Shown here in pieces: positions 3,708-46,399 of a stretch of 64,000 bases of DNA; position 1 is the first letter of the stretch, and each line of letters opens with the position of its first letter. Under the pieces are notes generated by a model. It made no database searches. It saw only the letters and a list, made by a program, of their open reading frames with translations, and was not told where the DNA came from. Both the position numbers and the translations under genes were made by a program. The DNA is from a virus: the IMG/VR virus record IMGVR_UViG_3300013108_000188; one strand, written 5' to 3'.

Positions 3708-3715
3708 TATAAATA
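3708..3715 (+). promoter_or_regulatory. T4-type late promoter for gp4
   Basis: Perfect TATAAATA upstream of the + strand gp4. Confidence 0.7.
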
Positions 3716-3734: not shown

Positions 3735-3742
3735 TATTTATA
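3735..3742 (-). promoter_or_regulatory. T4-type late promoter for the gp48 operon
   Basis: Perfect TATAAATA on the minus strand 28 nt upstream of the gp48 ATG. Confidence 0.7.
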
Positions 3743-3757
3743 CAAGAAATAGAGGAT

Positions 3758-4198
3758 ATGTTAATGGCTACAGCAAGTTATAAAGGAAGATATTTACCTA
3801 TAAACAAAGACAAATACATAGGAAATCCAGATAGAATAGTATATCGTTCAAATTGGGAGAGAAGATTTATGGTCTATTGTGACCGTAATGACGCCATTCT
3901 TCATTGGGGTAGTGAGGAGATTGCTATTCGTTATCGTAATCCTATCACTAAAAAAATATCAAATTACTTTCCTGACTTCTTTGTTGTCACCAAGAAAGCA
4001 AAGACAATTATAGAAATTAAACCCAAAGCATTTACAATTAAACCTAGACCTCGTAAAAGAAAAACACGAGCATATATTAATGAAAGTTTAGCGTATATTA
4101 AGAATAAATGTAAATGGGGTGCTGCTAGGCGTTATTGTGATATGCAAGGTTGGCACTTTAAAATATTTACGGAAGATGATTTAGGTAAGTTTAACTAA
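3758..4198 (+). CDS. gp4: head completion nuclease gp4
   Basis: YKGRY.P.N.DKYIG.P..IVYRSNWER, WGSEE, YFPDF, IEIKP motifs. Confidence 0.9.
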   Translation: MLMATASYKGRYLPINKDKYIGNPDRIVYRSNWERRFMVYCDRNDAILHWGSEEIAIRYRNPITKKISNYFPDFFVVTKKAKTIIEIKPKAFTIKPRPRKRKTRAYINESLAYIKNKCKWGAARRYCDMQGWHFKIFTEDDLGKFN

Positions 4199-17349: not shown

Positions 17350-17736
17350 TTACCTTAATGACAAGTGATATAATGTTTGAGAAGTAGTTTCTGCCATATC
17401 TTCTAACACAGAAATTATATCTTCAAATTGATTCAAATCATTTTGTTGTGTTATGTTATATGTTGCTTGTGAAACATCCTGTTGATATTGTACTATTTCT
17501 GAAGTGGTATGTTCTTTACTTTTATAATTTTGTAAAGTATGTTGTCCACTTTCAATATGTACTCTTTTATTTTGGTTACCTTGCCACGCTTCAACTAATT
17601 TATCGTTAAGGTCAGATAACTTTTTATGAAATTCTCCTAATGCTTCGTGTTCAGCATAACTATGTGTTTGCCAATGTGCTAATTGTATGTTGTTTAATAA
17701 AACAATTGTTTTACTTACTAGTGTTTCTATCATCAT
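17350..17736 (-). CDS. ferritin/Dps-like four-helix protein (DUF5856-like)
   Basis: HWQT.SYAEHEALG...D.LVE..QG motif. Confidence 0.7.
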   Translation of the reverse strand: MMIETLVSKTIVLLNNIQLAHWQTHSYAEHEALGEFHKKLSDLNDKLVEAWQGNQNKRVHIESGQHTLQNYKSKEHTTSEIVQYQQDVSQATYNITQQNDLNQFEDIISVLEDMAETTSQTLYHLSLR

Positions 17737-17737
17737 A

Positions 17738-17959
17738 TTATTTACTCCTAAAATCGTTCCAAAATTTTACTATTGGATTATCCTTATCTTCTTCTATTTG
17801 TTTTTCTTTTTTTTCTTTTGTGTATGTTCCTAAAAATAACGCAATCCCAAAACCTAAAATGGTTAATATTGTGCCACCTATTCCCAATGTCAAACCGTCA
17901 ACTATATCCATACTATCTTGTTTCTTCTGACTTAACATTGCCATTTTCGTCTCGTTCAA
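17738..17959 (-). CDS. small membrane protein
   Basis: Single TM. Confidence 0.5.
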   Translation of the reverse strand: MNETKMAMLSQKKQDSMDIVDGLTLGIGGTILTILGFGIALFLGTYTKEKKEKQIEEDKDNPIVKFWNDFRSK

Positions 17960-18386
17960 CTCCTGCGTTTCTATCTTCTTCTTCTGGCGTCATCTGGAAA
18001 GGTATACCTGATAAGTCTGTTTTAAGGTTCTTTGCTTCTCTATACTTATCATCTTCTAATCTTTGTGCCATTTCTTGTTCTGGTGTTTTAAAATTTGTTA
18101 TCTTGTTTTCTTCTAATAACTTCTGTATATCTCTTTTCTTTTCTCTAGCAACTCTTTCATCACGCTGTCTAAATGATTCTTGCATAGACGCTTCTAATTG
18201 TTCTTTTTCTTTATTTACTTCTGTTAAAAAGTCTTTGGTAGTTTGTGATAAATCTCCAACTTTAATTCTTGTTCCTGTTGCAATATCTTTTGCTTCGTGT
18301 GCCTGAGCAATTGGATGAGTATTCTTTAACTCTTTTTCAACTTCTTTTTGTTTCTGTTCTTCTGCGTCTAAAAATAAATCTGTCAT
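17913..18386 (-). CDS. charged hypothetical protein
   Basis: ATGA overlap with the upstream gene. Confidence 0.55.
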   Translation of the reverse strand: MTDLFLDAEEQKQKEVEKELKNTHPIAQAHEAKDIATGTRIKVGDLSQTTKDFLTEVNKEKEQLEASMQESFRQRDERVAREKKRDIQKLLEENKITNFKTPEQEMAQRLEDDKYREAKNLKTDLSGIPFQMTPEEEDRNAGVERDENGNVKSEETR

Positions 18387-18883
18387 TGTGTTACCTCAAA
18401 CCATTTTGGTTTTCTACTAGGTATTTTCCAAGTAGCAATATCTTTCTTTTCGTTTATATAATATTTTCTATATGAAGCAACTACATCACCATCTATCTTA
18501 CAATAATCAGGCATAGCAGGTGTTGGTAGTGTACCTATTTTAGCTAAAGGTATATTTTTAGGTGGGTTTTTTAAAATATCATTAAGTTTATCAAACGACA
18601 TATGATTTTTTGTTTTATTATATCTTAATTTATATTCATCGTTCATAGCAACCCAATGTCTGTACAACCACACATAATTCCATAATGATTCTCTTACCCA
18701 CTTGGCACTAGGATGATTTTTATGAGTTGATTTATATAAATTCTCATTAGCATTATCTCCATCTAGTTCTCTATGAGCAGTACTCATAAGTTGAGCAGAT
18801 TCTAATATCATTTTAACAATGTGTTTATCACACATCATTTGTACTGCTTTAATCGGGTCTTCGTCTAAACAAAATATATTCAT
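18383..18883 (-). CDS. pyrimidine-dimer DNA glycosylase-like protein (DenV family)
   Basis: MNIF.LDEDP..A....DKHIVKMILESAQL, H.NHPSAKWVR, YRKYY. Confidence 0.75.
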   Translation of the reverse strand: MNIFCLDEDPIKAVQMMCDKHIVKMILESAQLMSTAHRELDGDNANENLYKSTHKNHPSAKWVRESLWNYVWLYRHWVAMNDEYKLRYNKTKNHMSFDKLNDILKNPPKNIPLAKIGTLPTPAMPDYCKIDGDVVASYRKYYINEKKDIATWKIPSRKPKWFEVTQ

Positions 18884-19027
18884 TAATTAACTCTATTAAA
18901 TTTAATAGACAATTGTTTCCATACTCCAGTCCAAAACATTTTTGCCCATTTTGATTGTGCTTTATTCATCATTGTTTCAGCGTTCTTAATCAATTCATTT
19001 TTTCTTTTATCAGTATACATAAGTTTC

Positions 19028-19056
19028 ATTATACACCATTTCCTTGTTGTTGTCAA
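19028..19056 (-). promoter_or_regulatory. sigma70-type early promoter
   Basis: TTGACA-17-TATAAT. Confidence 0.8.
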
Positions 19057-20103
19057 CTACTCAATTTTAGACTTTACTAGTGTTTTATCAACACCTTTTG
19101 GTTCACTTGCGTTCCAATCAAGTATTTGGTCCATTTTTATACGAATCTCATCTGGATCCAGACCCATATCTCTTAATTCTTTATTTCCTAATGCAAGAAA
19201 AAACTTCTCGTAATCTTCATTGGTTAAGTTCTTTTTAGCTAGTTTCTTAAAAAATTCTTTATAATTACCTATCTGTTTCTTTGCTTCTTTAATCTTCTCG
19301 TTTTCTCTTTTAATCTGTAAATCTAACTTTTTAATATCATATTGTTTCTTCTTACTTCGTAATTTACTCCAACCTGATAATGATATATTAGCAGCAATTA
19401 ATAATAATACTGCCAATGGGTCAAATACAAATATCAATACTATTATAACCGCTCTAACTGCTTCATCAAAGTAGTCTTTGGCATTATCACCATATATTAG
19501 TTCTGCGATGTATTTAAGAGGTCCTACTTCTGCCTCTAACATCTTCGTCTCTAATTCAAATTCTTGTTTCTTTAACATCAACTCATCAATCTTATCCATT
19601 GCATTGTTGATTGCTAAATTAAGTTCTTCTCGTTCTTCTTTTTGTTTCTTTCTCTCTTTTAGACCTCTACTTACATATTCTTTTGCAATATAAACATCTA
19701 ACGCTTTGTCTAATCTTTCTAAAGTCTTTTCTGCTCGTACTATTACTCGTTCTTCTTGTAATATTTGTTTATCAATTAAAACAATTCTAGTTTCATTTGT
19801 TGTGGTAGGTTTAACTTGGTCTAAATGTGCCTTTGATAGGAAACCAAATATACCCATTGAGGTAACAAATACTAACACAACTACGGAGGTTGTCAAGTAG
19901 TATTTTATGGACTTCGGCAGTAATGGATTTCTCCAGTTCTGATATAACCAAGAAGCGGTAACTAACTTACCAACTTCTAATACTGCACCCATTATTATAA
20001 TAGGTACTTTTGCACCAGCGAATATGGCAGCTAAACCTAAAATACTATAAAAGGCAGCTACGCCTGAAATACTTAATGCCGCTAAAAATGCTAATATACC
20101 CAT
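19057..20103 (-). CDS. multi-TM coiled-coil membrane protein
   Basis: Three N-terminal TMs, coiled coil, EVGPLKYIAEL, VFDPLAV. Confidence 0.75.
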   Translation of the reverse strand: MGILAFLAALSISGVAAFYSILGLAAIFAGAKVPIIIMGAVLEVGKLVTASWLYQNWRNPLLPKSIKYYLTTSVVVLVFVTSMGIFGFLSKAHLDQVKPTTTNETRIVLIDKQILQEERVIVRAEKTLERLDKALDVYIAKEYVSRGLKERKKQKEEREELNLAINNAMDKIDELMLKKQEFELETKMLEAEVGPLKYIAELIYGDNAKDYFDEAVRAVIIVLIFVFDPLAVLLLIAANISLSGWSKLRSKKKQYDIKKLDLQIKRENEKIKEAKKQIGNYKEFFKKLAKKNLTNEDYEKFFLALGNKELRDMGLDPDEIRIKMDQILDWNASEPKGVDKTLVKSKIE

Positions 20104-20104
20104 T

Positions 20105-20413
20105 TTATCTCCTGATAACTATATATTCATATCCTTCCACATTTTCTAATTTCTTTTGTGTGAATATGTAATTTCTGTTATCTAAAAATAGTCTCATCTT
20201 TTTAAATATCTTATTAGATTGTCTTCCTGGAAAACAAGACATCACATCTTTTTGCCAATTGCCTGTGAAATATATCTTGCGTTCTCCTCGTCTCATCCTT
20301 TCAAAGGTCAAAAATGCTTGTTCAATCATTTTCTTTAAAAAAGGATCCATATAAGGACGATTATCTTCCTTAATGTTATTATAACTTTCATCTTCCCAAT
20401 TATTTGGTCTCAT
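20105..20413 (-). CDS. hypothetical protein
   Basis: Tightly coupled ORF. Confidence 0.55.
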   Translation of the reverse strand: MRPNNWEDESYNNIKEDNRPYMDPFLKKMIEQAFLTFERMRRGERKIYFTGNWQKDVMSCFPGRQSNKIFKKMRLFLDNRNYIFTQKKLENVEGYEYIVIRR

Positions 20414-21123
20414 TACATTTGTTCCTCTAGTTTTCTTATCTTTTTAATAATTCTGATTACTCGTTCTGGATAATCAGGTGTAGTGGAAAATTTATCAAGT
20501 GTTTTTACCAACTCAATTGGGTCCATTTTGCCATATAAAGAAAGTTGTTTTATTCTCAACTTTCTAAATCTCTCATAAGCAGGATGCTCGTTCATTAATC
20601 TAATATATTCTTTTACACTATCGCATTTCGTAGCGAATACTCTTACTCCCCAACCAGGCCACTTCTCCATACCTTCAGGTAGCATATGTGGTTGTGTTGT
20701 TTTAAATACTCTTATGCCAAATAAGTTGTTTGCTTTTTCTGCAAATCTACTATTACCCCAAGCACTTTCCAAAACTGCCTGTGCCGTAACCATTTCATAT
20801 GGTACTCTATTATGCGATGGTGTTGTGAAGTTTAAATAGTCAATACATTTATGGACTGCCCTAACAAACTGCATATCATTATTAAATTCAAAAGCAGGTT
20901 CTCTTAAATCTAGTTCTTTTAATTTGTCTAGGTATTTGTTTTCAAATTCTTTTTCGTATTTGTGTAAGATGTAATTGTTTGGATGAAAGGTTCCCACTAG
21001 ATATATGGAACCAAATAATAGTCCTATGCCCAATATTCTCTTTGTCCATTTTTTAACAGACACAACTGCATTACTGACTTCTTTATTAATTTTTTGTTTC
21101 ACTTTTCCCATAATGTTTTTCAA
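20413..21123 (-). CDS. membrane-anchored GH73 glucosaminidase (Bax/FlgJ-like)
   Basis: AQAVLESAWGNSRFA..ANNLFGIR, YxxxMN.HPAY, FSTTPDY; N-terminal TM. Confidence 0.85.
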   Translation of the reverse strand: MKNIMGKVKQKINKEVSNAVVSVKKWTKRILGIGLLFGSIYLVGTFHPNNYILHKYEKEFENKYLDKLKELDLREPAFEFNNDMQFVRAVHKCIDYLNFTTPSHNRVPYEMVTAQAVLESAWGNSRFAEKANNLFGIRVFKTTQPHMLPEGMEKWPGWGVRVFATKCDSVKEYIRLMNEHPAYERFRKLRIKQLSLYGKMDPIELVKTLDKFSTTPDYPERVIRIIKKIRKLEEQM

Positions 21124-21126
21124 CTA

Positions 21127-21546
21127 TTAAACTATGTCAATTCCTGCTCTACTCATTTTATTTTTATATGAGTAAAACAACTTGTTATGATTACCACTAT
21201 CACCTCTTGTCATTTGAAACAGATGGACCATTTCGTGGCCAAGTGTATCAATAAATTCTTTCTTATTTTTATAGTGAGTACATAACTCTAAATGAAAGGC
21301 ACTAGTACCTTTTCTTTTCCATTCCCATTGTGTAACCTGTCCAAAACATCTTTGATTTCTTAAATCTTTTAAATGTACATCATTGAAAGGTTGTAATTCA
21401 TTATCAAATATCGCCTCGTTTATCCAGGCAAATACTTTCTTTATATCTTTATAGGTAGTTTTATATTTGTTTGTATGCTTATATTCTGATTTAACTCTTT
21501 TTTTAAGAGTAGCATACCTAACTGATTTAGGTTTTAGTGATGGCAT
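21127..21546 (-). CDS. SprT-like Zn metalloprotease
   Basis: N..IF...L, TLGHEMVH...H...F motif. Confidence 0.75.
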   Translation of the reverse strand: MPSLKPKSVRYATLKKRVKSEYKHTNKYKTTYKDIKKVFAWINEAIFDNELQPFNDVHLKDLRNQRCFGQVTQWEWKRKGTSAFHLELCTHYKNKKEFIDTLGHEMVHLFQMTRGDSGNHNKLFYSYKNKMSRAGIDIV

Positions 21547-37190: not shown

Positions 37191-38225
37191 TTAAACTTTT
37201 TTATAATTTACTAATGCTTGTTTTGCTGATAATTTAGAGTATGTGTTGATACTTATAATTTCATCTAATTGTACTTTGGTTACACCTGTCATAATTAAGT
37301 CATTAACATCTTTAAGTTGTATCTCACTAGGCCAAATAAAAATGTTATATCCTTGTTCAATAATCTTTTCCATTCTATTAATGATTTCTTTATTACGAGG
37401 TTCGTTGTCAAATATATATGTGACCTTATCTTTTGAGATTTTACTATCTAAAGATAAATCTGCCCCACCAGCAGCTAAACAATTATCTAAAAATAAACTA
37501 TCAATAGGTCCTTCTACAACAAATATATGTTTTGCAAAATTTATTCTTTCAAGTCCAAATACTTTTTGTTTATTTTCATCTAACTTAATGGTTACATATT
37601 TTGGTACTTCTTTTCCAAAGGCACGACCTTGATAAGCAAACACCTTACCTTGTTCATCATAGAAAGGAATAATCAATCTAGGATGGTCGTACTTCGGTTT
37701 ATTATATTTTCTTGGAGCAATCTTATGTGCCCATTCATAAAATTTGTCGCATAAAAATAACTTATCAAAATACTTCTCTGGAATAAGTCTTTCTACAACA
37801 ACTTTTCTTGCTGGGTGTTGAGCGTCTAACTCAGCAATACTTTTCAGTTCACTAATATGGTCATCTTTTATATCAGGTTTAAAATCAAATTTAAACTCTG
37901 GTTTAGGTGTCGCTGGGGACGCCGTTTTATATCTTTCTAATAGATATGTTTCATAGACTTTTGGGTCTATAAATTTTAAAAAATTTGCAAGGTTTTGACC
38001 AACACCACAATTATGGCATTTGAAAAACATATCGTTTTTCTTACGATAGAAATAACCTCTACTTTTTAGTTTTGACTTCTGACTATCCCCACAATGAGGA
38101 CATCTGAAATTGAATAGATAGTCACCTTTTTTCTTAAATTGGCCTAATCTTACCGAAATCTCATTTATGAATTTTAAATCAATATAACTGGACATAGCAA
38201 TCTCATAATTATTATTATTACTCAT
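37191..38225 (-). CDS. gp61: DNA primase gp61
   Basis: FRCPHCGDS..FKCHNCG Zn finger, EGPIDSLF, FDNEPRN, KDVND; real start may be 38195. Confidence 0.95.
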   Translation of the reverse strand: MSNNNNYEIAMSSYIDLKFINEISVRLGQFKKKGDYLFNFRCPHCGDSQKSKLKSRGYFYRKKNDMFFKCHNCGVGQNLANFLKFIDPKVYETYLLERYKTASPATPKPEFKFDFKPDIKDDHISELKSIAELDAQHPARKVVVERLIPEKYFDKLFLCDKFYEWAHKIAPRKYNKPKYDHPRLIIPFYDEQGKVFAYQGRAFGKEVPKYVTIKLDENKQKVFGLERINFAKHIFVVEGPIDSLFLDNCLAAGGADLSLDSKISKDKVTYIFDNEPRNKEIINRMEKIIEQGYNIFIWPSEIQLKDVNDLIMTGVTKVQLDEIISINTYSKLSAKQALVNYKKV

Positions 38226-38321: not shown

Positions 38322-38777
38322 CTATTGGACTTTCATAAGTTCAATTACTAGAGGAAAATTCCTAGCTAATATAAACCCTATTACTATTGACCCACCTATA
38401 ATCAACCACTTCCATTTCTCTAGTACATTTACCCTATCTCCAAGTGTATTTTTGATAGACTTAATCTCGTTCATAATACGCTTTTCAGTAAGGTCCATAT
38501 TCTCTTTTAGAGACGCATATCTTGTTTCTGTCTCTACTTGTCTTTCCTTTAATTTAGAAAAGATAATTTCATCTAATTTTTCTGCTTGTGATAGTTTTTC
38601 TTCGTGTACTGCTAACATAGACTTAATACTTGAAGATATACCTGTTAACTTCTCAATCGCTGTATCTAGTCTTTTATGCACCATTGAGTTTTGTTCTAGT
38701 TCTGTTCTCAGCACCTCAATACTTGTCCTGTTGTCTGCGACTTCTCTCTCTAAAGAAGTTAGTGATTTTTCTGCCAT
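38322..38777 (-). CDS. coiled-coil protein with C-terminal TM
   Basis: Heptads ending in LEKWKW followed by a hydrophobic helix. Confidence 0.65.
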   Translation of the reverse strand: MAEKSLTSLEREVADNRTSIEVLRTELEQNSMVHKRLDTAIEKLTGISSSIKSMLAVHEEKLSQAEKLDEIIFSKLKERQVETETRYASLKENMDLTEKRIMNEIKSIKNTLGDRVNVLEKWKWLIIGGSIVIGFILARNFPLVIELMKVQ

Positions 38778-38787
38778 TTATTTATCC

Positions 38788-40932
38788 CTAATCTGTCTGT
38801 ATTATTGTTATATTATTTTGGGTAGAGGAATTTCCCACATCAAGGTGTTGTGCTTCTTTATCTTGTAAAATTTGAATATCTGCCTCATTACTCGTTTCAG
38901 TTTTTACATAAGCTCTATGATTATCGTTATATCTATTTATAATTGTGTAGTCACCACTAGTAGAAGCAGTAGCGTCAAAATCATTATTTAATGTTGATAC
39001 TCTTCCTGTGGAAGTAGCACTTGAAGTCGCACCTGTAACCCCATCCGTTGTAGTTAAAGTTTGGGTTACATCTCCAGTAGTATAGTTTAAAGTTTCACCA
39101 CTAGCAGTTACCTGTGTTTCTGCACCAGTATTATCAACCCATTCAGTACCACAACTAGAATTAGCATTGTCCCAATAGTATCCATATTTTAAACACTCGT
39201 CTTCATTATAACTAGCTAATAATATTTCTAGTTCTGCGTCTATATCATAGTCATCTTCGTAAGCATATTCATCTTCCCAACTAGATTGGTCATCTTCATT
39301 ATTGTAATCGTAACCTGTGTACCACCAATCGTATAATGCGTCCCAATATGTATCCCAATCTGACCATTCCCAATCAGTTATGTAAGTCTTTTTTAAATCT
39401 TTCATTTTCCAAGGTTTAGGTTGGTCAGCACACATCTTATAGTTTGGCCAACTTCCACACCAACCATATAATTTACCAAATATCTTTTTAGCTTCTTTAG
39501 TCCAACTATCATTGGTTACTTTTAAAGTCCAGTCATCTTTATACCAATCGTTTAAGTAATCAACATAGTCTTGGTTACACCAATAGTCTTCGTAACCATT
39601 GTACTCACAATAGTTTTGTACCGTTAATGTAGGAGGACCTCCATTAGCAATGTATTCAGAATTGCTATAGTAAGCGTCATCTAAAGCAAAATCTTCCCAA
39701 GTATATCCTTCAACTACTTCTGCTTCTGTTTCTTCTTTAGTTTCTTCAACTACATCTTCCTCAACTACTTCTACATTCCAAGAAGCAAGACCATAGTCAG
39801 ATAAAATTTCGTTATATGCCTCATCATAAGCATCCCAATCAACTTCATCCCAATTTATATCATCCCAATTAACACTATCCCAACTACAATCTGAACAACC
39901 TATTGCGTCAAAATATGCTTGGTCCATTTCGGCATACATTTGTTTAGCGTCATCCCAATCCATAGTCTTTTCACCTTCAGCATCCCATACAGAAATCTGG
40001 TTATCTTCATCTATATAACCCCACTCTTTTAAATCATCTTCCCATTCATCATAGTAAGATGTATCTACTTCTGATTCTACAACTGCTGTATCTAAACCTT
40101 TTTCTTCTATTGATTGTGTTTCAATTATTGCGTCACCTTCACTAACAGACATATCTGTTTGAACAATTGTGTCATTGTTCTCTACTACATTTACTTCTTC
40201 ATTTATTATCGCCTCTTCCATTGCTTGTGCTTTTTCAACTTTAGTATCCATATCACCAAAAGATTTCTCAACATCTTCTTTTATATCTTCTTCAAATTTA
40301 TCTAACTCAATAATGTTTTGTTTATTAGTTTCTATTTTAGGAGGTGTAGGTGCTAAATCATTATTATAAACGGTTACGGAATTAAATGCGTTTGTAATTG
40401 TTTGAGAACCTGCGTCATTAGATACGGTTAACATACCTACTGAACCATCACTATCAGGCAACAAAGTAATTGTTGCTTTACCTGAAGTATCAACGGTACC
40501 TGAAAACGCTGTACCTTGTACCGTAATCGTAGCGTTACCAGCATTAATATTAACTTCACCACCTAATTCTGATACACTTCCAGATTCATATGTAAATGAA
40601 CCTACATTAACCGATATGTTCATTGCTAATTCTATTGGCACAACAGAAGTATCAAAAGCAAACTCATCAATAATTAATTCTGTATTTGGTCCCATTGTAA
40701 ATTTAGTTTTATCAACATATGATATTATCATACCACCATCTTCACCTGTTTGAAGAAAGTCGTTCATCTGTAATTCATAACCAGTAGAAGTGTTTTCAGT
40801 TGAACCGTCCCTTTCGTTCCAAGTCGTACCCATTGAACCTATGACTTCGCCAACTTTTGGACCTGTTATTTGAGCTATTGCACTAGTACAGAAAAGTACC
40901 AGGAAAGATACTATGAGAAATAGTTTTTGCAT
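38788..40932 (-). CDS. exported FecR-domain protein with acidic Trp/Tyr-rich region and curlin-like C-terminus
   Basis: Signal peptide; D.LQTG.DG..I.Y.D.T.F.MGPN..L.ID and A.I.V.GT.F FecR motifs; ends NNITIIQTD. Confidence 0.8.
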   Translation of the reverse strand: MQKLFLIVSFLVLFCTSAIAQITGPKVGEVIGSMGTTWNERDGSTENTSTGYELQMNDFLQTGEDGGMIISYVDKTKFTMGPNTELIIDEFAFDTSVVPIELAMNISVNVGSFTYESGSVSELGGEVNINAGNATITVQGTAFSGTVDTSGKATITLLPDSDGSVGMLTVSNDAGSQTITNAFNSVTVYNNDLAPTPPKIETNKQNIIELDKFEEDIKEDVEKSFGDMDTKVEKAQAMEEAIINEEVNVVENNDTIVQTDMSVSEGDAIIETQSIEEKGLDTAVVESEVDTSYYDEWEDDLKEWGYIDEDNQISVWDAEGEKTMDWDDAKQMYAEMDQAYFDAIGCSDCSWDSVNWDDINWDEVDWDAYDEAYNEILSDYGLASWNVEVVEEDVVEETKEETEAEVVEGYTWEDFALDDAYYSNSEYIANGGPPTLTVQNYCEYNGYEDYWCNQDYVDYLNDWYKDDWTLKVTNDSWTKEAKKIFGKLYGWCGSWPNYKMCADQPKPWKMKDLKKTYITDWEWSDWDTYWDALYDWWYTGYDYNNEDDQSSWEDEYAYEDDYDIDAELEILLASYNEDECLKYGYYWDNANSSCGTEWVDNTGAETQVTASGETLNYTTGDVTQTLTTTDGVTGATSSATSTGRVSTLNNDFDATASTSGDYTIINRYNDNHRAYVKTETSNEADIQILQDKEAQHLDVGNSSTQNNITIIQTD

Positions 40933-42018
40933 TTAACACCCGCTATTGTTTAGCTGAACGGTTGTATCTGCTGTCTGATTGTTTCTATTGAAAGAGTATG
41001 TACAATTATCTGAACCATCTTGGTCAACAAGTAAAGTGTAATCGTAAATTGAATCACCACTTACGGTTAAGTTTGCTTCGTTTGAACCACCTGTTTGTTT
41101 TAATTCTACTACTGCGTTTGAAGTATAGATATAAACATATGCCTTATTGTTTCCACCACTTCCATAATATCTATAAACATTTGAGTTACCACTTGTAACC
41201 GTTTTCATATAATTATTATCGCCGTATTGAATCATCCTTATGTGAGAACCTACAGCGTCTGGATGAACATCTAATACATTTGAATCACCTATGACATCGT
41301 GTACTTGATAATTACTAGCACCCCAACTTGCCATATGAACCGTATTGGAGCTACCAATTATATAAACATCAATTGTAGCACCTTCGTCACCACTTGTATC
41401 TGCAAATTGTCCGTGTGATTCTACATTTGGACCAATCATAACATTTGCTTTACTTGAACCAACCATACCTGTTGAGTTAGTTGCACCATAAAACTCTACA
41501 TCATTTGAATCACCTGACATAAGAACATATAAGAAGTGTGAGTCACCTCTTAAATATGCCCAAAAATCATTTGAGTCACCTTTAATATCTAAATCTATGT
41601 GAGTATCTTGTATATCATCACTTGTATGTGAATCTAACTCTACTATGTTTGAGTTACCTGTAATATCTATATCGTAATAGTGTCCATCTGCGCCTGTGTC
41701 ATCTAAATCAAGTCTTAATACATTTGAATCGCCTGTTGCAATGTAATCAAAGGTCATATTAGACCCATAAAAAGTGTCGTGGTTGGTATCTACAGCAACA
41801 TTATTATCGCCTAATTGTTTTATGATAAGTGTTAAGTTAGGACCATTAATTATAAAATTTGCTGAGGAAGAACCAAACTTATTACCTGAACCATCTTGTT
41901 TTATATAGATGGATCCTGCACTAGTTTGATTGTCTTGCTGAATATAAACAGAATTGCCAGCGAAACTATTAGTTAGTGTCGCTAGAAGAATCACTATTGC
42001 CATTACTATCTTTTTCAT
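40933..42018 (-). CDS. curlin-like repeat protein (CsgA/CsgB-like)
   Basis: Signal peptide; repeated (Q/I)xGxxN beta-solenoid units of about 22-24 aa. Confidence 0.75.
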   Translation of the reverse strand: MKKIVMAIVILLATLTNSFAGNSVYIQQDNQTSAGSIYIKQDGSGNKFGSSSANFIINGPNLTLIIKQLGDNNVAVDTNHDTFYGSNMTFDYIATGDSNVLRLDLDDTGADGHYYDIDITGNSNIVELDSHTSDDIQDTHIDLDIKGDSNDFWAYLRGDSHFLYVLMSGDSNDVEFYGATNSTGMVGSSKANVMIGPNVESHGQFADTSGDEGATIDVYIIGSSNTVHMASWGASNYQVHDVIGDSNVLDVHPDAVGSHIRMIQYGDNNYMKTVTSGNSNVYRYYGSGGNNKAYVYIYTSNAVVELKQTGGSNEANLTVSGDSIYDYTLLVDQDGSDNCTYSFNRNNQTADTTVQLNNSGC

Positions 42019-43081
42019 CTGACTTGTTCTCCTGTTCTGTATGTTTGTCTACTTCGTCCCAATCTTTTTCATCTACGAGTTTTGTACACTCTTCTGATAC
42101 TTTACCAGAAGCATTAGCGTTTTTCTCGCATTCCATTTTAATTTTTATATCTCTTTTTCTTGCTTCTTTTTCTTCTTCTTTTTGTTTAAGATAGTCTTCG
42201 TATGTTTTCTCAACTTTTTCTTCACCTATCTCTACGGTAATTGGTGTTCCGTCATACTTATCTAAAGCGTGACCATCTTCTACATAATCTTTAATTTCTG
42301 GCACTATTGTTTCATCAATTTCCCATAAACCTTTTTTAGCACCTTCATTAATTAAATCTACTACACCTTTTTCTATTGCTTTTCTTACTGCATAGGTAAC
42401 TGGTTCGTTTCTTGCCACTCCCATTTCAATCTCTACTAACATTGTATCTGTATCTAGGTATTTAAATACATCTGCACCTGTTTCGCCTGAAAGTATAGTC
42501 TTTTCAACGGTTGTAGTTATTACTACTTCACCACTTTGTACATTAACTAATCTTAATATAATAGTAACCACATCTTGTCTGTATTGTTTGTGTGCTTGAA
42601 TACCTAATATTCTTGCACCAACACCACCAGATTTAGTATCACTATCATATCCTACTATACCACCTGTGATATATGCACCTGCGAATAGTAATGGTGGTAA
42701 AGGTTCTGCACCTTCACCATTTACTTGTTGTCTTGTAGACCTTATTAATTTTCTCTCTTGTAATAGACTTGGTAGACTTGCTCTTTCAACAACTCTAAAC
42801 CATTTGCCATCACCTGCGTCTTGTAATGCTTTAATTAATAATTGATATGACCCTTGCGTTACCGCTGTACTCATTGACGCAAAAGAACCACCTGGTTTCT
42901 TTTGTCCTGTCATATCTAAAAAATCATACACAGCAATTACTACTGGTTCACCTTTTGGCGAATTAATTTCTGTCAATCCTTTATATGATACCGTTTGAGT
43001 TCTTACATCAAAATCTGATTTTGTACTCGCACAACTACCCAAAAAGAGTGTAAGCAATAACAAAGATATAATTCTTAACAT
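41969..43081 (-). CDS. csgG: curli secretion channel lipoprotein CsgG
   Basis: Lipobox LGSC; AVYDF.D.TGQ.KP, STAVTQG, WFRVVER, ERKLIRS, GGIVGYD, NEPV. Confidence 0.95.
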   Translation of the reverse strand: MLRIISLLLLTLFLGSCASTKSDFDVRTQTVSYKGLTEINSPKGEPVVIAVYDFLDMTGQKKPGGSFASMSTAVTQGSYQLLIKALQDAGDGKWFRVVERASLPSLLQERKLIRSTRQQVNGEGAEPLPPLLFAGAYITGGIVGYDSDTKSGGVGARILGIQAHKQYRQDVVTIILRLVNVQSGEVVITTTVEKTILSGETGADVFKYLDTDTMLVEIEMGVARNEPVTYAVRKAIEKGVVDLINEGAKKGLWEIDETIVPEIKDYVEDGHALDKYDGTPITVEIGEEKVEKTYEDYLKQKEEEKEARKRDIKIKMECEKNANASGKVSEECTKLVDEKDWDEVDKHTEQENKSDEKDSNGNSDSSSDTN

Positions 43082-43089
43082 ATTTTTTC

Positions 43090-43548
43090 CTACGAGTTAT
43101 CTTCTTTAGGTAAAGTATAAGTTGTTACCGTACCATCTGATTCTGTTACCGTTACCACTACATTACCTGTACCTGATGGTGTAGTCCAAGTGACCACTTC
43201 TCCACCAACTGGTGATGTAAATGTACCAGAGTCTTGTTGTAGACCATCTGTACCGAATACATTGTCCGTAATTTGTTTTGCCAGAGCAGTATAGAATCTA
43301 CTCTCTAAATTTGCTTTGAATTTAGCTATAGCAGTTGCCTTTGCGTCTGCTGTTGCTTTATCAGCTGCCGCTTTGTTCGCTGCCTTGATTGCGTCTTTTC
43401 TAGTTTTCTCAATGTTCTCTATTGTTAAATAATGTGAAGACTTTCCTTTACCTGAAAACGAAGGACTATCAAATTCAAATGTTAGTTCGCTTGAGTATGC
43501 ACTAGAGATAAAGACAAGTGTAAGTATAATACTTGTAATGAATCTCAT
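43090..43548 (-). CDS. csgF: curli assembly protein CsgF
   Basis: Signal peptide then ELTFEFDSPSFSG; F..NLESR....L; immediately upstream of csgG. Confidence 0.85.
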   Translation of the reverse strand: MRFITSIILTLVFISSAYSSELTFEFDSPSFSGKGKSSHYLTIENIEKTRKDAIKAANKAAADKATADAKATAIAKFKANLESRFYTALAKQITDNVFGTDGLQQDSGTFTSPVGGEVVTWTTPSGTGNVVVTVTESDGTVTTYTLPKEDNS

Positions 43549-43563
43549 AATTCTCCTAATAAT

Positions 43564-43586
43564 TGCTATAATATTTATAATAAATA
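43564..43586. promoter_or_regulatory. divergent promoter region: late TATAAATA (minus, 43572-43579) for csgF; TGcTATAAT extended -10 and AATAAATA (plus) for the cyclase
   Basis: Motifs read directly in the 55-bp intergenic gap. Confidence 0.55.
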
Positions 43587-43603
43587 GTCAGACGAGAATT
43601 GAT

Positions 43604-45229
43604 ATGAATCAAATATTTACTACAAGATGGTTTGCTTGTCTCACTTTTGTTATACTTCTTGGAATTTACTTGGTAAATCCAGTACTATTACAATCAACTA
43701 GACTAGCAACCTTTGATACTTACCAGAAATTTGGGACTCATTTAGATTCCAAATCTTTAGTCCTATTGGATATTTCAGACAAAGCACTTAAAAAGAACGG
43801 ACAATGGCCTTGGAAAAGAGATACACTTGGTCGCACTATAATTAATGCGTATAAAAATGGTGCCGCTCTAGTAGTATTACAAGTAGTCTTTCCTCATAAA
43901 GATAGACTAGGTGGTGATGAAATGTTTTTAAAGATGATACAAAAATATCCTGTCATACTAACTGAAACAAATGAAGTTAAAAATCTTATCAGTATATCCA
44001 GAAGAGCATTAGCAATAGGTAATGTATCTGTACCTGTTGATATAGATGGTACTATAAGAAAACTACCTCTGGATAAATCAATACCTGAAGTCGTATTAAA
44101 AGTAATAAAATTTCCTACACCTGAAGTAGATAATATTTGGTTAGATTTTAGACATCATATTCCTAGAGTAGATTTTACAGATAAAGATTGGTCATCTATG
44201 AAAGGTAAAATAGTTTTCATAGGTACTACATTTAAAGGTTCTACTTTTGCATTAACTCCAAATGGTTTAAAAAACACACACGAAATTATGGCAGTTAGTA
44301 CAGAAACTTTATTGTCTGGTAAATATATTAGTAGACCACATTGGTTATCTAGTTTAGAATTTTTTTATATAATAATAGGTTGTGTAATACTATTGTTTTT
44401 TATTCCTAAATTAGGTGTATTATCTTCTGCATTAATGTATGCTGGTTACTCTATACCTATCGCACTAGGAAGTATATATCTATGGACACAAAATTTATAT
44501 CTAACTGATTGGTTAAGTCCATTAGTAATAGGTACTTTAGTTTCAGGTCATTTAATATACAATAATTTTGCTAGAGAAAATAGATTGAAACTACAAATTA
44601 AAAAACAATTTGAACATTATCTAGCACCTCAAATGGTTAAAAAATTACAACAAAATCCATCACTATTAAAACTAGGTGGAGAGAGAAAAGAAATGACATT
44701 TTTGTTTTCTGATATAAGAGGTTTTACTCCTATAACTGAATCAATGAAAGGCGAACCAGAAAAGGTTGCTAAGTATGTTAATAAGTTTCTTACTGCAATG
44801 ACAAGTATAATACTTAAAAATGGTGGCACTATTGATAAGTATATGGGTGATTGTATAATGGCATTTTGGAATGCACCACTTGATAATCCAGAACATAAAA
44901 GACTAGCAATATTATCTGCGTATCAAATGAGAAGAACCGTTAGAGAAATGAATAAGAGTGGAGAGTTTAACCCACCTTTAAATATTGGTATAGGTATCAA
45001 TACAGGCGATTGTCTTGTAGGTAATATGGGTAGTGAACAAAGGTTTGACTATTCTGTTATCGGTGACGCTGTTAATCTTGCAAGTAGATTAGAAGGTCAA
45101 AGTAAAGAATTCAATACAACTATTGTAATATCAGAAAATAGTATCGCTGGAGATTTGCCGTTCTATAAACTTGGTAAAGTTAAAGTAAAAGGTAAAGAAG
45201 AAAAGATTAATTGTTATTCTATTAAGTAA
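43604..45229 (+). CDS. CHASE2-domain class III adenylate cyclase
   Basis: GQWPWKR CHASE2 motif, 1+3 TMs, LKLGGE, FSDIRGFT, IDKYMGDCIMAFWNAP, GIGINTG, FDYSVIGDAVNLASRLE; start reassigned to MNQIF. Confidence 0.93.
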   Translation: MNQIFTTRWFACLTFVILLGIYLVNPVLLQSTRLATFDTYQKFGTHLDSKSLVLLDISDKALKKNGQWPWKRDTLGRTIINAYKNGAALVVLQVVFPHKDRLGGDEMFLKMIQKYPVILTETNEVKNLISISRRALAIGNVSVPVDIDGTIRKLPLDKSIPEVVLKVIKFPTPEVDNIWLDFRHHIPRVDFTDKDWSSMKGKIVFIGTTFKGSTFALTPNGLKNTHEIMAVSTETLLSGKYISRPHWLSSLEFFYIIIGCVILLFFIPKLGVLSSALMYAGYSIPIALGSIYLWTQNLYLTDWLSPLVIGTLVSGHLIYNNFARENRLKLQIKKQFEHYLAPQMVKKLQQNPSLLKLGGERKEMTFLFSDIRGFTPITESMKGEPEKVAKYVNKFLTAMTSIILKNGGTIDKYMGDCIMAFWNAPLDNPEHKRLAILSAYQMRRTVREMNKSGEFNPPLNIGIGINTGDCLVGNMGSEQRFDYSVIGDAVNLASRLEGQSKEFNTTIVISENSIAGDLPFYKLGKVKVKGKEEKINCYSIK

Positions 45230-45576
45230 TTAATCATAGCTAATCAACACAAATTTAATCAATGCTACGAAAATTATAAATGTTGTGATTGATATTTTTG
45301 TATATATTGCTATGAAATTTCCTAGTCTGAAAGACCAGTATATAACTGCCCATAATATAATTAAATTTATTAATAATAAATGTGTATTCATCTGTCTTTA
45401 AACAGATATTACTTTTTATCTGTCAATTTGTTTATAAGTTCAAAAGCTACTTTAACTTTTTCTTCTAACACTTTTATTCTATAATGTGATTGTGCTAAGG
45501 TTACTATTAAAATGATAAATGCCACAAACATTGGCCACAATCTACTTATCATTAATACTAAATCTGCGTCCATAAA

Positions 45577-45942
45577 TTACTCTTTGTTCTTTGGTTTTTT
45601 CTCCTCTGGTTCATAATATTCTTTATATGCGTCAATCAAATCGTTGGTTGCTTTCATATGATTTCTAATTTGAGCAAAGTTTTTAGCGATTAATTGAAAA
45701 TCTTTATCTGTTAAACCAAATAACACAGGATCAATACCTTCATCTTCTAACTTCTGGAATACTTCAGCAGCATTATCAGAAGTAATGATAATCCATTTAA
45801 GTTTTTCTAATTGTGGTAAGGTTGGTTTTTGTAATTCTAATTTTTGTCTTTCAACTTCTGTTGTGAATATGTCAAGTTTTTTAATACTTGAGCATCCAGT
45901 TAAAAGGACTATGAATAAAATACTAATTACTATACGGTACAT
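45577..45942 (-). CDS. o-spanin (Rz1-like lipoprotein)
   Basis: Lipobox LTGC, Pro-rich stretch, overlaps the end of an upstream TM/coiled-coil gene. Confidence 0.7.
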   Translation of the reverse strand: MYRIVISILFIVLLTGCSSIKKLDIFTTEVERQKLELQKPTLPQLEKLKWIIITSDNAAEVFQKLEDEGIDPVLFGLTDKDFQLIAKNFAQIRNHMKATNDLIDAYKEYYEPEEKKPKNKE

Positions 45943-46399
45943 AATTTGGGTTCGCTATACTTGGACATTCTCTATTAATTTCAGATTTCTTTGTAGCTTT
46001 AATTTCTGCTTCTGTTAAGGCAGCGCCACCAGCAATTTCAACACAACGCATAACATTATCGCTACCTCTATTGATTATTTTCTGTATGACTTTCGTTTTT
46101 TCTAATGCAAGTTTACCAAAGTCTCTTCCACCTTTAGTAAATCTCTTGTCTAAATCTTGTAAATCCTTTTGAAGTTTATTCATAAGAGTATTCATCTTAT
46201 TATTTGCTTCAAGGATTTTACCAAAGTCTTCTTTTTGTTGGGCTATAACTTTCTTTTGACCTTCAACGGCAGCTTCTAACTTAACTTGATTAGCTTTTAA
46301 AATTGCATTGTCCTTCTGCAATTTCATAACATAGAGACCTGCACCTGCAAGTCCACTAATCATTATTACAACCATTGCCATTTTCATATAACCAAACAT
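45923..46399 (-). CDS. i-spanin (Rz-like)
   Basis: N-terminal TM, long periplasmic coiled coil, C-terminal Cys. Confidence 0.7.
   Translation of the reverse strand: MFGYMKMAMVVIMISGLAGAGLYVMKLQKDNAILKANQVKLEAAVEGQKKVIAQQKEDFGKILEANNKMNTLMNKLQKDLQDLDKRFTKGGRDFGKLALEKTKVIQKIINRGSDNVMRCVEIAGGAALTEAEIKATKKSEINRECPSIANPNYVPYSN

Follow-up and report, generated by a model that had tools for sequence, protein, structure and literature searches.

A curli-type secretion cassette that includes genes for a FecR-domain protein and an adenylate cyclase of the CHASE2 type in a pelagiphage-type genome: a candidate relay assembled from two bacterial modules

What purpose does an adenylate cyclase serve beside a curli-type secretion channel in the genome of a phage? 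SAR11 and OM43 count among the sea's most numerous cells, and the curli genes of their phages have been without an accepted function since their annotation in HTVC008M and their description across pelagimyophages in 2020. We analyzed a stretch of 64,000 nucleotides (nt) of the IMG/VR virus record IMGVR_UViG_3300013108_000188 (hereafter the window), in which csgF, csgG, and the genes for a curlin-repeat protein and a FecR-domain protein are tightly packed on the minus strand next to a plus-strand gene for a CHASE2 cyclase (38788-45229, from the list of open reading frames (ORFs)). The open reading frames and the Pfam searches place all five genes where a preliminary description, made from the sequence alone, had put them. 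It is highly likely that the window carries the cassette known from pelagiphages and that its cyclase is active. The best explanation of the whole, to which we assign a probability of about 0.5, is a phage-made chimera of two bacterial modules that acts as a relay between FecR and CHASE2. That FecR and CHASE2 work as a pair is fairly probable when taken by itself, and the more specific proposal that the relay operates by retention or threading of the FecR protein through CsgG/CsgF is possible and somewhat doubtful.

The gene set itself is not new, because it was published in 2022 (Wittmers et al., 2022; PMC9599517). CsgF, CsgG, CsgA/B, FecR, and an adenylate cyclase, often along with another CsgA/B, were reported there in pelagiphages belonging to both Podoviridae and Myoviridae; FecR and the cyclase were noted to be foreign to bacterial curli operons, and the genes were detected in metatranscriptomes. 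According to the same study, the second curlin after FecR, frequent in myophages, and the histidine kinase before csgF in podophages are both variable parts. Curli genes had also been described in earlier pelagiphage papers, in which 'sibling capture', uptake, and lysis timing were offered as ideas. The published accounts of the pelagiphage cassette (including PMC9599517) mention neither CHASE2 nor a TolC-type variant, nor RTX or cadherin proteins. What is new relative to the literature is the move and inversion of the cyclase gene, the retention of FecR and the cyclase in 37 of 37 csgG-bearing viral loci with enough flank, the separate occurrence of its two modules in bacteria, the link to the retention domain of MpIBP, and a sister module of the TolC type.

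The window belongs to a T4-like myophage. Tail and baseplate families were matched in the PHROGs, and among cultured phages Pelagibacter phage Mosig comes closest, at 75.6% nt identity across nrdA, nrdB, and primase. With csgF, csgG, curlin, FecR, and cyclase genes clustered in a genome of the pelagiphage type, the locus represents the pelagiphage module comprising a secretion system of type VIII (T8SS), FecR, and adenylate cyclase. The same module is found in HTVC008M, in which gp014-019 encode CsgF, CsgG, curlin, FecR, a PA14/curlin protein, and the CHASE2 cyclase on one strand, and in Melnitz, in which the same six (gp99-104), likewise in one direction, were already annotated. The families, the order from csgF to FecR, the host group, and the expression as a block are shared with these two phages. 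In contrast, the cyclase gene of the window lies upstream and inverted with a divergent promoter, and there is no second curlin gene; the FecR protein is of 714 amino acids (aa) instead of ~370, with an acidic, Trp-rich insert of 390 aa; the CHASE2 domain is shorter (541 aa vs. 611-683 aa for the proteins); and the cassette is located between spanin genes and the DUF7201/primase genes. Neither a second curlin gene nor a histidine kinase was found between 38322 and 46399 in the ORFs or by Pfam and PHROGs.

The secretion part of the cassette is of the alphaproteobacterial type. The csgF gene (43090-43548, minus strand), directly upstream of csgG, encodes a protein of 152 aa, which would be the exported cap or adaptor of the T8SS; it has a signal peptide, a Pfam CsgF match well above the cut-off (E 2.5e-12; 47.6 bits vs. 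25.8), and the mature N-terminus SELTFEFDSPSFSG in translation, and a sequence search of the PDB returned no match for it. CsgG (41969-43081, minus strand; 370 aa; Pfam CsgG E 5.9e-50), the putative outer-membrane lipoprotein channel, bears the lipobox LGSC and aligns to the E. coli CsgG structure 3x2r over the whole core (residues 8-256, E 2.7e-49). The constriction residues Tyr51/Asn55/Phe56 of the E. coli channel are not kept in the phage protein in this alignment, N55/F56 reading S/M (...SFASMSTAV vs. ...PASNFSTAV) at aa ~60-75 of the phage protein. Family membership is unaffected, and the pore lining of the phage CsgG probably differs from that of E. coli. The core of aa 1-256 is followed by an acidic, Lys-rich tail of ~110 aa, and the 3' end of csgG overlaps the start of the curlin gene by 50 nt. 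The tail (aa ~260-370; 41969-42300) is absent from the CsgG of HTVC008M.

The curlin-repeat protein (40933-42018, minus strand; 361 aa) has a signal peptide, tandem strand-turn repeats of the forms G-[DNS]-[SN]-N and IxIxQxGxxN, and a Pfam Curlin_rpt match above the cut-off (E 7.4e-7; 29.4 bits vs. 20.7). It is related to the curlin part of HTVC008M gp018 (E 1e-7) and is presumed to be the fibre subunit and the substrate of CsgG. A CsgG lipoprotein channel, CsgF, and a repeat protein exported by Sec are thus common to the window and the E. coli curli system, from which the window differs in lacking csgE, csgC, and csgD, as in Alphaproteobacteria, in the S/M constriction and the 110-aa tail of CsgG, and in the degenerate, Asp/His-rich repeats of its 361-aa curlin.

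The FecR-domain protein (38788-40932, minus strand; 714 aa) consists of a Sec signal peptide, a FecR-fold domain, an acidic stalk rich in Trp and Tyr, and a C-terminal beta domain. Its Pfam FecR (PF04773) score of 18.8 bits falls under the cut-off of 24. Nevertheless, the assignment to FecR holds, because the homologues HTVC008M gp017 (31% identical over residues 1-200, E 4e-19; 35.8 bits) and Melnitz gp102 (40.5 bits) both pass that cut-off and because the predicted fold matches PupR and the anti-sigma factor BDI_1681. The AlphaFold2 (AF2) model was built on 33 homologues, with a mean predicted local distance difference test (pLDDT) score of 67 and ~80 in the N-terminal domain. This domain superimposed on PupR 6ovk_R with a VIA Z of 15.3 (137 residues aligned; root-mean-square deviation (rmsd) of 2.8 Å) and on BDI_1681 (4m0n) with a VIA Z of 14.9; Foldseek gave E 4e-5 for this fold. 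By sequence, the profile of the phage FecR proteins found no PupR or FecR match in the PDB, even at E 10. The alignment of the 33 phage homologues displayed three conserved parts, with a signal peptide in 33/33. The N-terminal beta domain, delimited by fold and alignment, covers aa 25-216 (40285-40860, minus strand) and contains the invariant pair Gly140-Thr141. E. coli FecR cleaves itself between Gly181 and Thr182, a site to which the phage Gly-Thr would be a candidate counterpart.

The name of the domain, together with a suggestion in Wittmers et al. (2022; PMC9599517), invites an explanation by import of iron or cofactors, in which FecR would be an iron-dependent regulator of an ungated CsgG channel for siderophores or vitamins. 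Yet, apart from the fold, the parts of an anti-sigma FecR are missing. Neither a cytoplasmic anti-sigma domain nor a transmembrane (TM) anchor was seen in the sequence or the AF2 model, as the signal peptide runs straight into the FecR fold, and within the cassette Pfam detected neither an STN partner domain nor a gene for an extracytoplasmic function (ECF) sigma factor or for a TonB-dependent transducer. Furthermore, the closest PDB relative in sequence is the retention domain of an adhesin and no iron regulator, and in bacteria the homologous proteins occur as fusions with RTX, cadherin, BapA_N, and TPR parts. We regard the import of iron as highly improbable. The window does share the FecR fold with the FecA-FecR-FecI system, along with a conserved Gly-Thr that may correspond to the self-cleavage site of E. 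coli FecR, and the relay considered here may be likened both to that system and to NsrA-CyaD1/D2/K of S. meliloti, in which the outer-membrane barrel NsrA conveys an external protein signal to CHASE2 cyclases. These systems connect, and that of the phage would connect, an outer-membrane protein to an inner-membrane signalling protein. Unlike those systems, the window has no sigma/anti-sigma part or TonB-dependent transducer, and its outer-membrane part is a secretion channel rather than a receptor.

The adhesin in question is MpIBP. The sequence profile of the 33 phage FecR proteins had a sole significant PDB match, 5ix9_A (E 6.8e-4), the N-terminal domain of MpIBP, an RTX adhesin from Marinomonas; this structure served as the template for the LapA retention module (bioRxiv 10.1101/198937). 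The latter stays in the periplasm and holds the adhesin in a TolC-like pore (bioRxiv 10.1101/198937). The first half of the phage N-domain (aa 24-122) superimposed on 5ix9 with a Z of 7.4 (74/76 residues aligned; rmsd of 2.2 Å; 19% identity). The FecR protein of the window shares with the LapA/MpIBP adhesins a homologous N-terminal domain positioned before a long linker and an extracellular part, in a gene beside an outer-membrane conduit. The conduit here is CsgG/CsgF, the export is by a Sec signal peptide, and the output is a cyclic AMP (cAMP) cyclase rather than proteolysis controlled by c-di-GMP; retention is a proposal in the case of the phage. The traits of a substrate of type I secretion (T1SS) are not found in the window protein, which has a signal peptide and no RTX part; only sister viral contigs, described below, possess them. 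LapG and LapD genes were not seen in the cassette, the only part of the window inspected for them.

The stalk of the FecR protein (aa 217-620; 39073-40284, minus strand) contains 28% Asp+Glu, 15% Trp+Tyr, and 8 Cys. The linker is of ~390 aa in the window and ~80 aa in the short forms found in most phages, and inserts are predicted to be folded at aa ~290-385 and ~410-490 (AF2 pLDDT 80-90). The long acidic insert is confined to the clade of the window and its sisters, and no family was matched to it. The C-terminal beta-hairpin domain (~90 aa; 38791-39072, minus strand) ends in IxIxQ(TD) with R667, I708, I710, and Q712 conserved. A hidden Markov model of this domain matched all of the T8SS-type phage FecR ORFs and no ORF in 80 bacterial loci at E<=10, so that the domain looks like an addition made on the phage side. 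Modelled alone, it reached a pLDDT of 52; in the full-length model, only generic Ig-like sandwiches were retrieved (Z ~4).

These features bear on a different role, in which the FecR protein would be a secreted part of the fibre (nucleator, cap, or adhesin tip) exported via CsgG, with CHASE2 sensing an unrelated ligand. The signal peptide, the C-terminal beta domain ending in IxIxQ, and the acidic stalk agree with such a role, as does the position of the FecR gene between two curlin genes in many phages. On the other hand, the FecR domain is the portion common to the partners of bacterial CHASE2 cyclases, it matches periplasmic domains (the PupR CCSSD and the MpIBP retention domain), and the tail has no significant similarity to curlin. 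We consider the role as a fibre part improbable. A curlin-like tail was tried and rejected: 22 FecR tails gave hhalign probabilities of 0.8% against the window curlin, 0.8% against curlin-1, 4.3% against curlin-2, and 14.8% against CsgF, with 0.2% for CsgG and 0.5% for FecR-N as controls. Pfam Curlin_rpt likewise had no match in the 22 tails at E<=1, and only the IxIxQ motif remains. A fusion of FecR with the second curlin was also rejected as the origin of the 714-aa protein, which has no significant similarity to HTVC008M gp018 (best E 0.21).

The cyclase gene (43604-45229, plus strand; 541 aa; Pfam CHASE2 E 6.9e-27, Guanylate_cyc E 3.5e-21) lies in an ORF spanning 43538-45229, and its start was set at the ATG at 43604, as the equivalent Met is used by all close relatives. 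With this start, the gap between csgF and the cyclase gene is 43549-43603, in agreement with the divergent gap of 55 bp in the preliminary description. TM1 (aa 9-24) is followed by the CHASE2 domain, which is short and lies in the periplasm (aa 25-248; 43676-44347), then by three TM helices (aa 249-322) and the catalytic domain (aa ~340-541; 44621-45226). The CHASE2 assignment follows from Pfam, from this layout, and from the GQWPWxR motif, in which G66, Q67, P69, and R72 are invariant. Among 23 phage homologues of 36-78% identity, the metal-binding D370 and D416, K412, N491, R495, and R480 are invariant and S484 is conserved. The preliminary description had both metal Asp, a Lys/Asp pair specifying ATP, and the Asn/Arg motif; the metal Asp, the Lys, and the Asn/Arg motif stand, but the second specificity residue is not Asp. 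In the numbering of the 541-aa protein the substrate pair is Lys412/Ser484, and the Asp of 'FDYS' lies two residues upstream of the Ser. Ser484 aligns with the Thr of P. aeruginosa CyaB (3r5g), a class IIIb enzyme, and the two metal Asp, the Lys plus Thr/Ser (Asp in IIIa), and the transition-state Asn and Arg together place the protein in subclass IIIb. The closest PDB relatives are 6fht (a bacteriophytochrome-adenylate cyclase fusion), CyaB 3r5g, and 2w01, and the identity to HTVC008M gp019 is 34%. An active adenylate cyclase is most likely the best reading, because the metal Asp, Asn491, Arg495, and Arg480 are invariant in the 23 phage homologues.

We mapped the 80 viral contigs that scored best among at least 600 matches to a cyclase query, so that podophage and distant forms are under-sampled. 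In most, the gene order was csgF-csgG-curlin-FecR-(curlin2)-cyclase on a single strand. For a count conditioned on csgG, a CsgG profile was used as the query, and loci with at least 2.8 kb upstream and at least 5.5 kb downstream were retained. csgF, FecR, and the cyclase were present in all 37 of these csgG-bearing viral loci. The cyclase gene lay downstream in the same orientation in 31 of them, upstream in divergent orientation in five, and elsewhere in one; further placements were seen in two loci with shorter flanks (L212 and L258; locus labels are ours). Among the cyclase-conditioned loci with enough flank, 30/30 have FecR and an outer-membrane secretion set, which is of the T8SS type in 28 and of the TolC type in two. 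The co-segregation of the cyclase and FecR with csgFG, which had been named beforehand as a test of the proposed relay, was therefore found in 37/37 csgG loci, and the linkage outlasts several rearrangements of the cyclase gene.

A bacterial ancestry can be traced for each half of the cassette separately. The nearest bacterial CHASE2 cyclases are ~30-36% identical over the full length and belong mostly to Alphaproteobacteria, SAR86, and Omnitrophota. Of the 80 bacterial loci with such a cyclase, 47 extend for at least 4 kb to either side of it, and in 23 of these 47 a profile built from the phage FecR proteins detected a phage-like FecR gene within 4 kb; csgG or csgF was detected in none of the 80. 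That FecR genes neighbour CHASE2 sensors in bacteria, as the preliminary description stated, is thereby borne out, and has also been published for Burkholderia, where BiofilmReg pairs a LysM-FecR protein with a CHASE2 kinase (PMC5192318), and for Campylobacterota, where a CHASE2 cyclase occurs with FecR, TPR, and a phosphodiesterase (PMC9239204). As in the window, an exported FecR-domain protein stands beside a CHASE2 membrane sensor in these bacterial clusters, and the nearest relatives also have a class III cyclase as the output. In contrast to the window, the clusters are without csgG/csgF, their FecR partners are without the phage C-terminal domain, and TPR is the commonest extra neighbour. 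Conversely, seven alphaproteobacterial loci have csgG and csgF that strongly resemble those of the phages (E 1e-82 to 1e-95), with curlin-like genes nearby, and no FecR, FecR C-terminal domain, or CHASE2 cyclase was found within 10 kb of them. By these comparisons, the fusion of both modules is specific to phages among the loci searched, and a functional pair of FecR and CHASE2 in bacteria and phages is credible.

The bacterial FecR neighbours include giant proteins with RTX repeats, a BapA prefix domain (BapA_N), or six cadherin domains (SAR86), and one with a fused TPR (L127). As side observations, the commonest third neighbour of the bacterial pairs (L084-L163) is a TPR protein (13/116; three with a Slam-type TPR), and genes for GAF-domain and TolC-family (OEP) proteins recur beside the pairs, the latter as 2/116 neighbours.

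The occurrence of each half without the other may also be taken to mean that one envelope island combines two functions independent of each other. The FecR/CHASE2 cyclase would then be a self-contained device for taking over the host, raising cAMP upon a periplasmic cue (a nutrient or envelope stress), the curli genes would separately make fibres or a pore, and the linkage would come only from a shared late promoter and a variable region. Besides the FecR/CHASE2-cyclase pair without T8SS genes in bacteria and the curli operons without FecR or cyclase, the variability of the region among relatives agrees with this explanation, as Mosig is without the cassette at this site and HTVC008M has it elsewhere. 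The co-occurrence in 37/37 and 30/30 loci across at least four placements of the cyclase gene argues against it, as do the domain gained by the phage FecR and absent from the bacterial partners and the union of the FecR/cyclase pair with another outer-membrane secretion set in the TolC-type contigs. We regard two independent functions as unlikely.

In these TolC-type contigs, a second set from IMG/VR, an operon without curli genes ends with the gene for the same CHASE2 cyclase. The operon (L041:1528-10941, IMG/VR UViG_3300020404_001806; also L164-L176, L050, L068, and L073) encodes a giant protein of 1299 aa that starts at the FecR domain (E 1.6e-7), without a signal peptide, and continues into cadherin repeats and a serralysin-type RTX C-terminus. 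It further encodes an outer-membrane factor of the TolC family (E 3.5e-51), an ABC-transporter-like piece of 250 aa, an adaptor of the HlyD family, and an ORF of 130 aa; beside the module no complete ABC exporter was found, only that ABC-like piece. The cyclase was present in 13/13 loci with the phage TolC-family gene and the FecR-N giant in 7/7 with an upstream flank, and CsgG was absent from four TolC-type contigs. The arrangement closely matches that of the LapA/MpIBP adhesins. The signal-peptide pattern fits the route in each case, with Sec for the T8SS-type FecR and none for the T1SS-type giants. The FecR-like domain would share a periplasmic job beside CHASE2, because both are constant across the curli-type phages, the TolC-type contigs, and the bacteria while the conduit, which is always added in the phage loci, and the extracellular part vary, and because the presence of the signal peptide fits the route.

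We propose the following for the phage-made chimera. The first module, csgF-csgG-curlin of the alphaproteobacterial type, would build an outer-membrane channel and surface fibres on a host without curli genes, and the second, a FecR-domain protein with a CHASE2-gated class IIIb cyclase, is a sensor pair that occurs in bacteria without curli genes. Late in infection, CsgG/CsgF would be installed and the curlin exported. The FecR protein would cross the inner membrane via Sec; its N-terminal beta domain, of the FecR/PupR fold and homologous to the LapA/MpIBP 'plug', would remain periplasmic and form the inner end of a protein exposed at the surface, and the CsgG/CsgF pore would be engaged or passed by the acidic stalk together with the C-terminal domain peculiar to the phages. 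CHASE2 may then read whether the FecR domain is present, pulled, cleaved, or released, and may set the synthesis of cAMP in the infected cell accordingly. The contact between FecR and CHASE2, the retention or threading, the signal, and the target of cAMP are all inferred. The likeness to a retention module, the TolC-like sister module, and the phage-specific C-terminal domain indirectly suggest that the pore holds the FecR protein, and a trans-envelope relay is suggested by comparison with the known systems. A prediction of the complex between FecR aa 22-205 and CHASE2 aa 25-248 scored 0.00 and is evidence neither way. The sensing of contact or superinfection and the control of lysis timing, which the preliminary description had attached to the relay, are pure speculation.

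CsgG passes unfolded curlins, and its channel is ~1 nm wide. Several points weigh against the proposal. The Cys-containing inserts of the stalk, if folded as the AF2 model has them, would not fit such a channel, and CsgG is known for passing unfolded curlins, not for holding a stalled substrate. The match to 5ix9 has a Z below 8 and spans just half of the domain; no likeness to curlin was detected in the FecR tail, so that conservation alone links it to the fibre or the pore. The pieces of the TolC-type contigs contain no T4 hallmark gene, and their viral status relies on IMG/VR alone. Finally, five genomes of phages with the cassette were searched for the cNMP_binding domain, though not for GAF or further types of receptor, and none contained it.

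A broader version of the proposal is a general circuit for the surveillance of surface appendages. A periplasmic FecR-like plug would hold a surface protein in an outer-membrane conduit, which is CsgG/CsgF in the window and a TolC-family channel in other viral contigs, and a CHASE2 cyclase would translate into cAMP whether this plug sits in place, is pulled, or has been cut, perhaps at the invariant Gly-Thr. RTX/cadherin giants with a domain of this kind are encoded beside the cyclase in many Alphaproteobacteria and SAR86. On this view, marine phages would have captured the circuit at least twice, on two different secretion systems. We hold this generalization to be doubtful. No new gene family is involved in either version; what stays constant, kept together through several rearrangements and built on two secretion systems, is a unit of an outer-membrane conduit, a surface protein whose FecR-like domain would lie in the periplasm, and a CHASE2 cyclase. 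The idea of 'auxiliary biofilm genes' thereby becomes a testable signalling model, and a class of ligand is suggested for CHASE2, a widespread sensor domain for which the published accounts of these clusters name no direct ligand. If the relay is true, an infected cell of the SAR11 type could report the state of a phage-built surface structure, such as contact with neighbouring cells, particles, or other virions. If it is wrong, a phage-specific fusion of two bacterial modules, expressed late, still stands.

The late expression is indicated by the divergent intergenic region of 55 bp (43549-43603). A late-promoter box of the T4 type, TATAAATA, occurs there on the minus strand at 43572-43579, ~24 nt upstream of csgF, and abuts AATAAATA on the plus strand, a late-like box with one mismatch in front of the inverted cyclase gene. 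The csgF-side box is kept in 9/10 relatives with the divergent layout. Between -150 and +60 nt relative to the start of the csgF ORF, exact TATAAATA was found in 37/80 loci, mostly 13-32 nt upstream, against 0/80 control windows, and upstream of the cyclase gene in 0/35 co-directional loci. From this distribution around the two starts, we conclude that the cassette is ancestrally one late operon with the cyclase gene last. Over the whole window TATAAATA is not enriched (13 found vs. 15 expected), so the case for a late promoter rests on position and conservation. Scans of 38-46.6 kb for sigma-70 promoters and terminators gave counts at or under the shuffled expectation.

The divergent layout is common to the close relatives of the window (L004-L012 and L019). 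In the sister loci L016-L028, which have the same long FecR and cyclases of 59-68% identity, the cyclase gene follows FecR and precedes DUF7201/primase. Judging from gene order, the cyclase gene was moved to the opposite end of the operon and inverted in the lineage of the window, because these sisters keep it after the long FecR gene. Inverted repeats were considered as a trace of the inversion, and the only pair found, AT-rich and of 12 nt (43570-43581 and 45273-45284), is unconvincing. Downstream of the cyclase gene, the 347 bp at 45230-45576 contain no ORF of at least 60 aa, and relatives have 300-1700 bp here; the stretch is probably a scar or the terminator region of the relocation.

At its upstream end, the cassette borders directly on a spanin pair, with the inverted cyclase gene placed between the spanins and csgF. 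The pair comprises an o-spanin (45577-45942, minus strand; 121 aa; lipobox LLTGC) and an i-spanin (45923-46399, minus strand; 158 aa; an N-terminal TM and a coiled coil), matching the PHROG 812/739 'Rz-like spanin' pair (E 2e-10 and 7e-11). The adjacency is specific to the clade of the window, in which homologues flank the cassette. A lysis-timing device has been proposed for Melnitz, and here CsgG/CsgF would be a gated outer-membrane hole, secretin- or pinholin-like, whose opening is set by the cyclase and FecR alongside the spanins. The spanin adjacency in this clade, the late-promoter box, and the changed constriction residues of CsgG are in line with that function. However, the cassette of HTVC008M and Melnitz lies between ssb/2-oxoglutarate (2OG)-oxygenase genes and tail genes, so that the adjacency is not kept; the curlin with its signal peptide is always retained, which a pure pore role leaves unexplained; and an outer-membrane pore does not depolarise the inner membrane. 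A lysis-timing device is distinctly unlikely in our view, and the FecR-CHASE2 relay remains the preferred explanation.

The downstream border is a gene for a DUF7201 coiled-coil protein (38322-38777, minus strand; Pfam), followed by the primase gene (37191-38225) and nrdA, and the border is the same in relatives. The cyclase gene was said to be one of only two plus-strand genes in the window, which is roughly right: the second is at 3758-4198, and positive GC skew is confined to 44-46 kb. A second back-to-back pair of TATAAATA (plus strand 3708-3715; minus strand 3735-3742) precedes that gene, in the same layout as at csgF/cyclase.

The cassette is absent from Mosig at the syntenic site after the DUF7201 gene. 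Mosig (L002) has unrelated genes at 17368-21546, including one for a GTA_holin_3TM-like protein, and no match to the cyclase. Thus, the cassette was gained or lost between close relatives. In a complete IMG/VR genome of 170.8 kb (L012/G002), the match to the baseplate tail-tube cap is only partial, with 30% identity, and the primase is 54% identical to that of the window, while the cassette proteins are 55-84% identical; these values hint at movement of the cassette from one myophage lineage to another, or at a stronger constraint on it than on the core genes.

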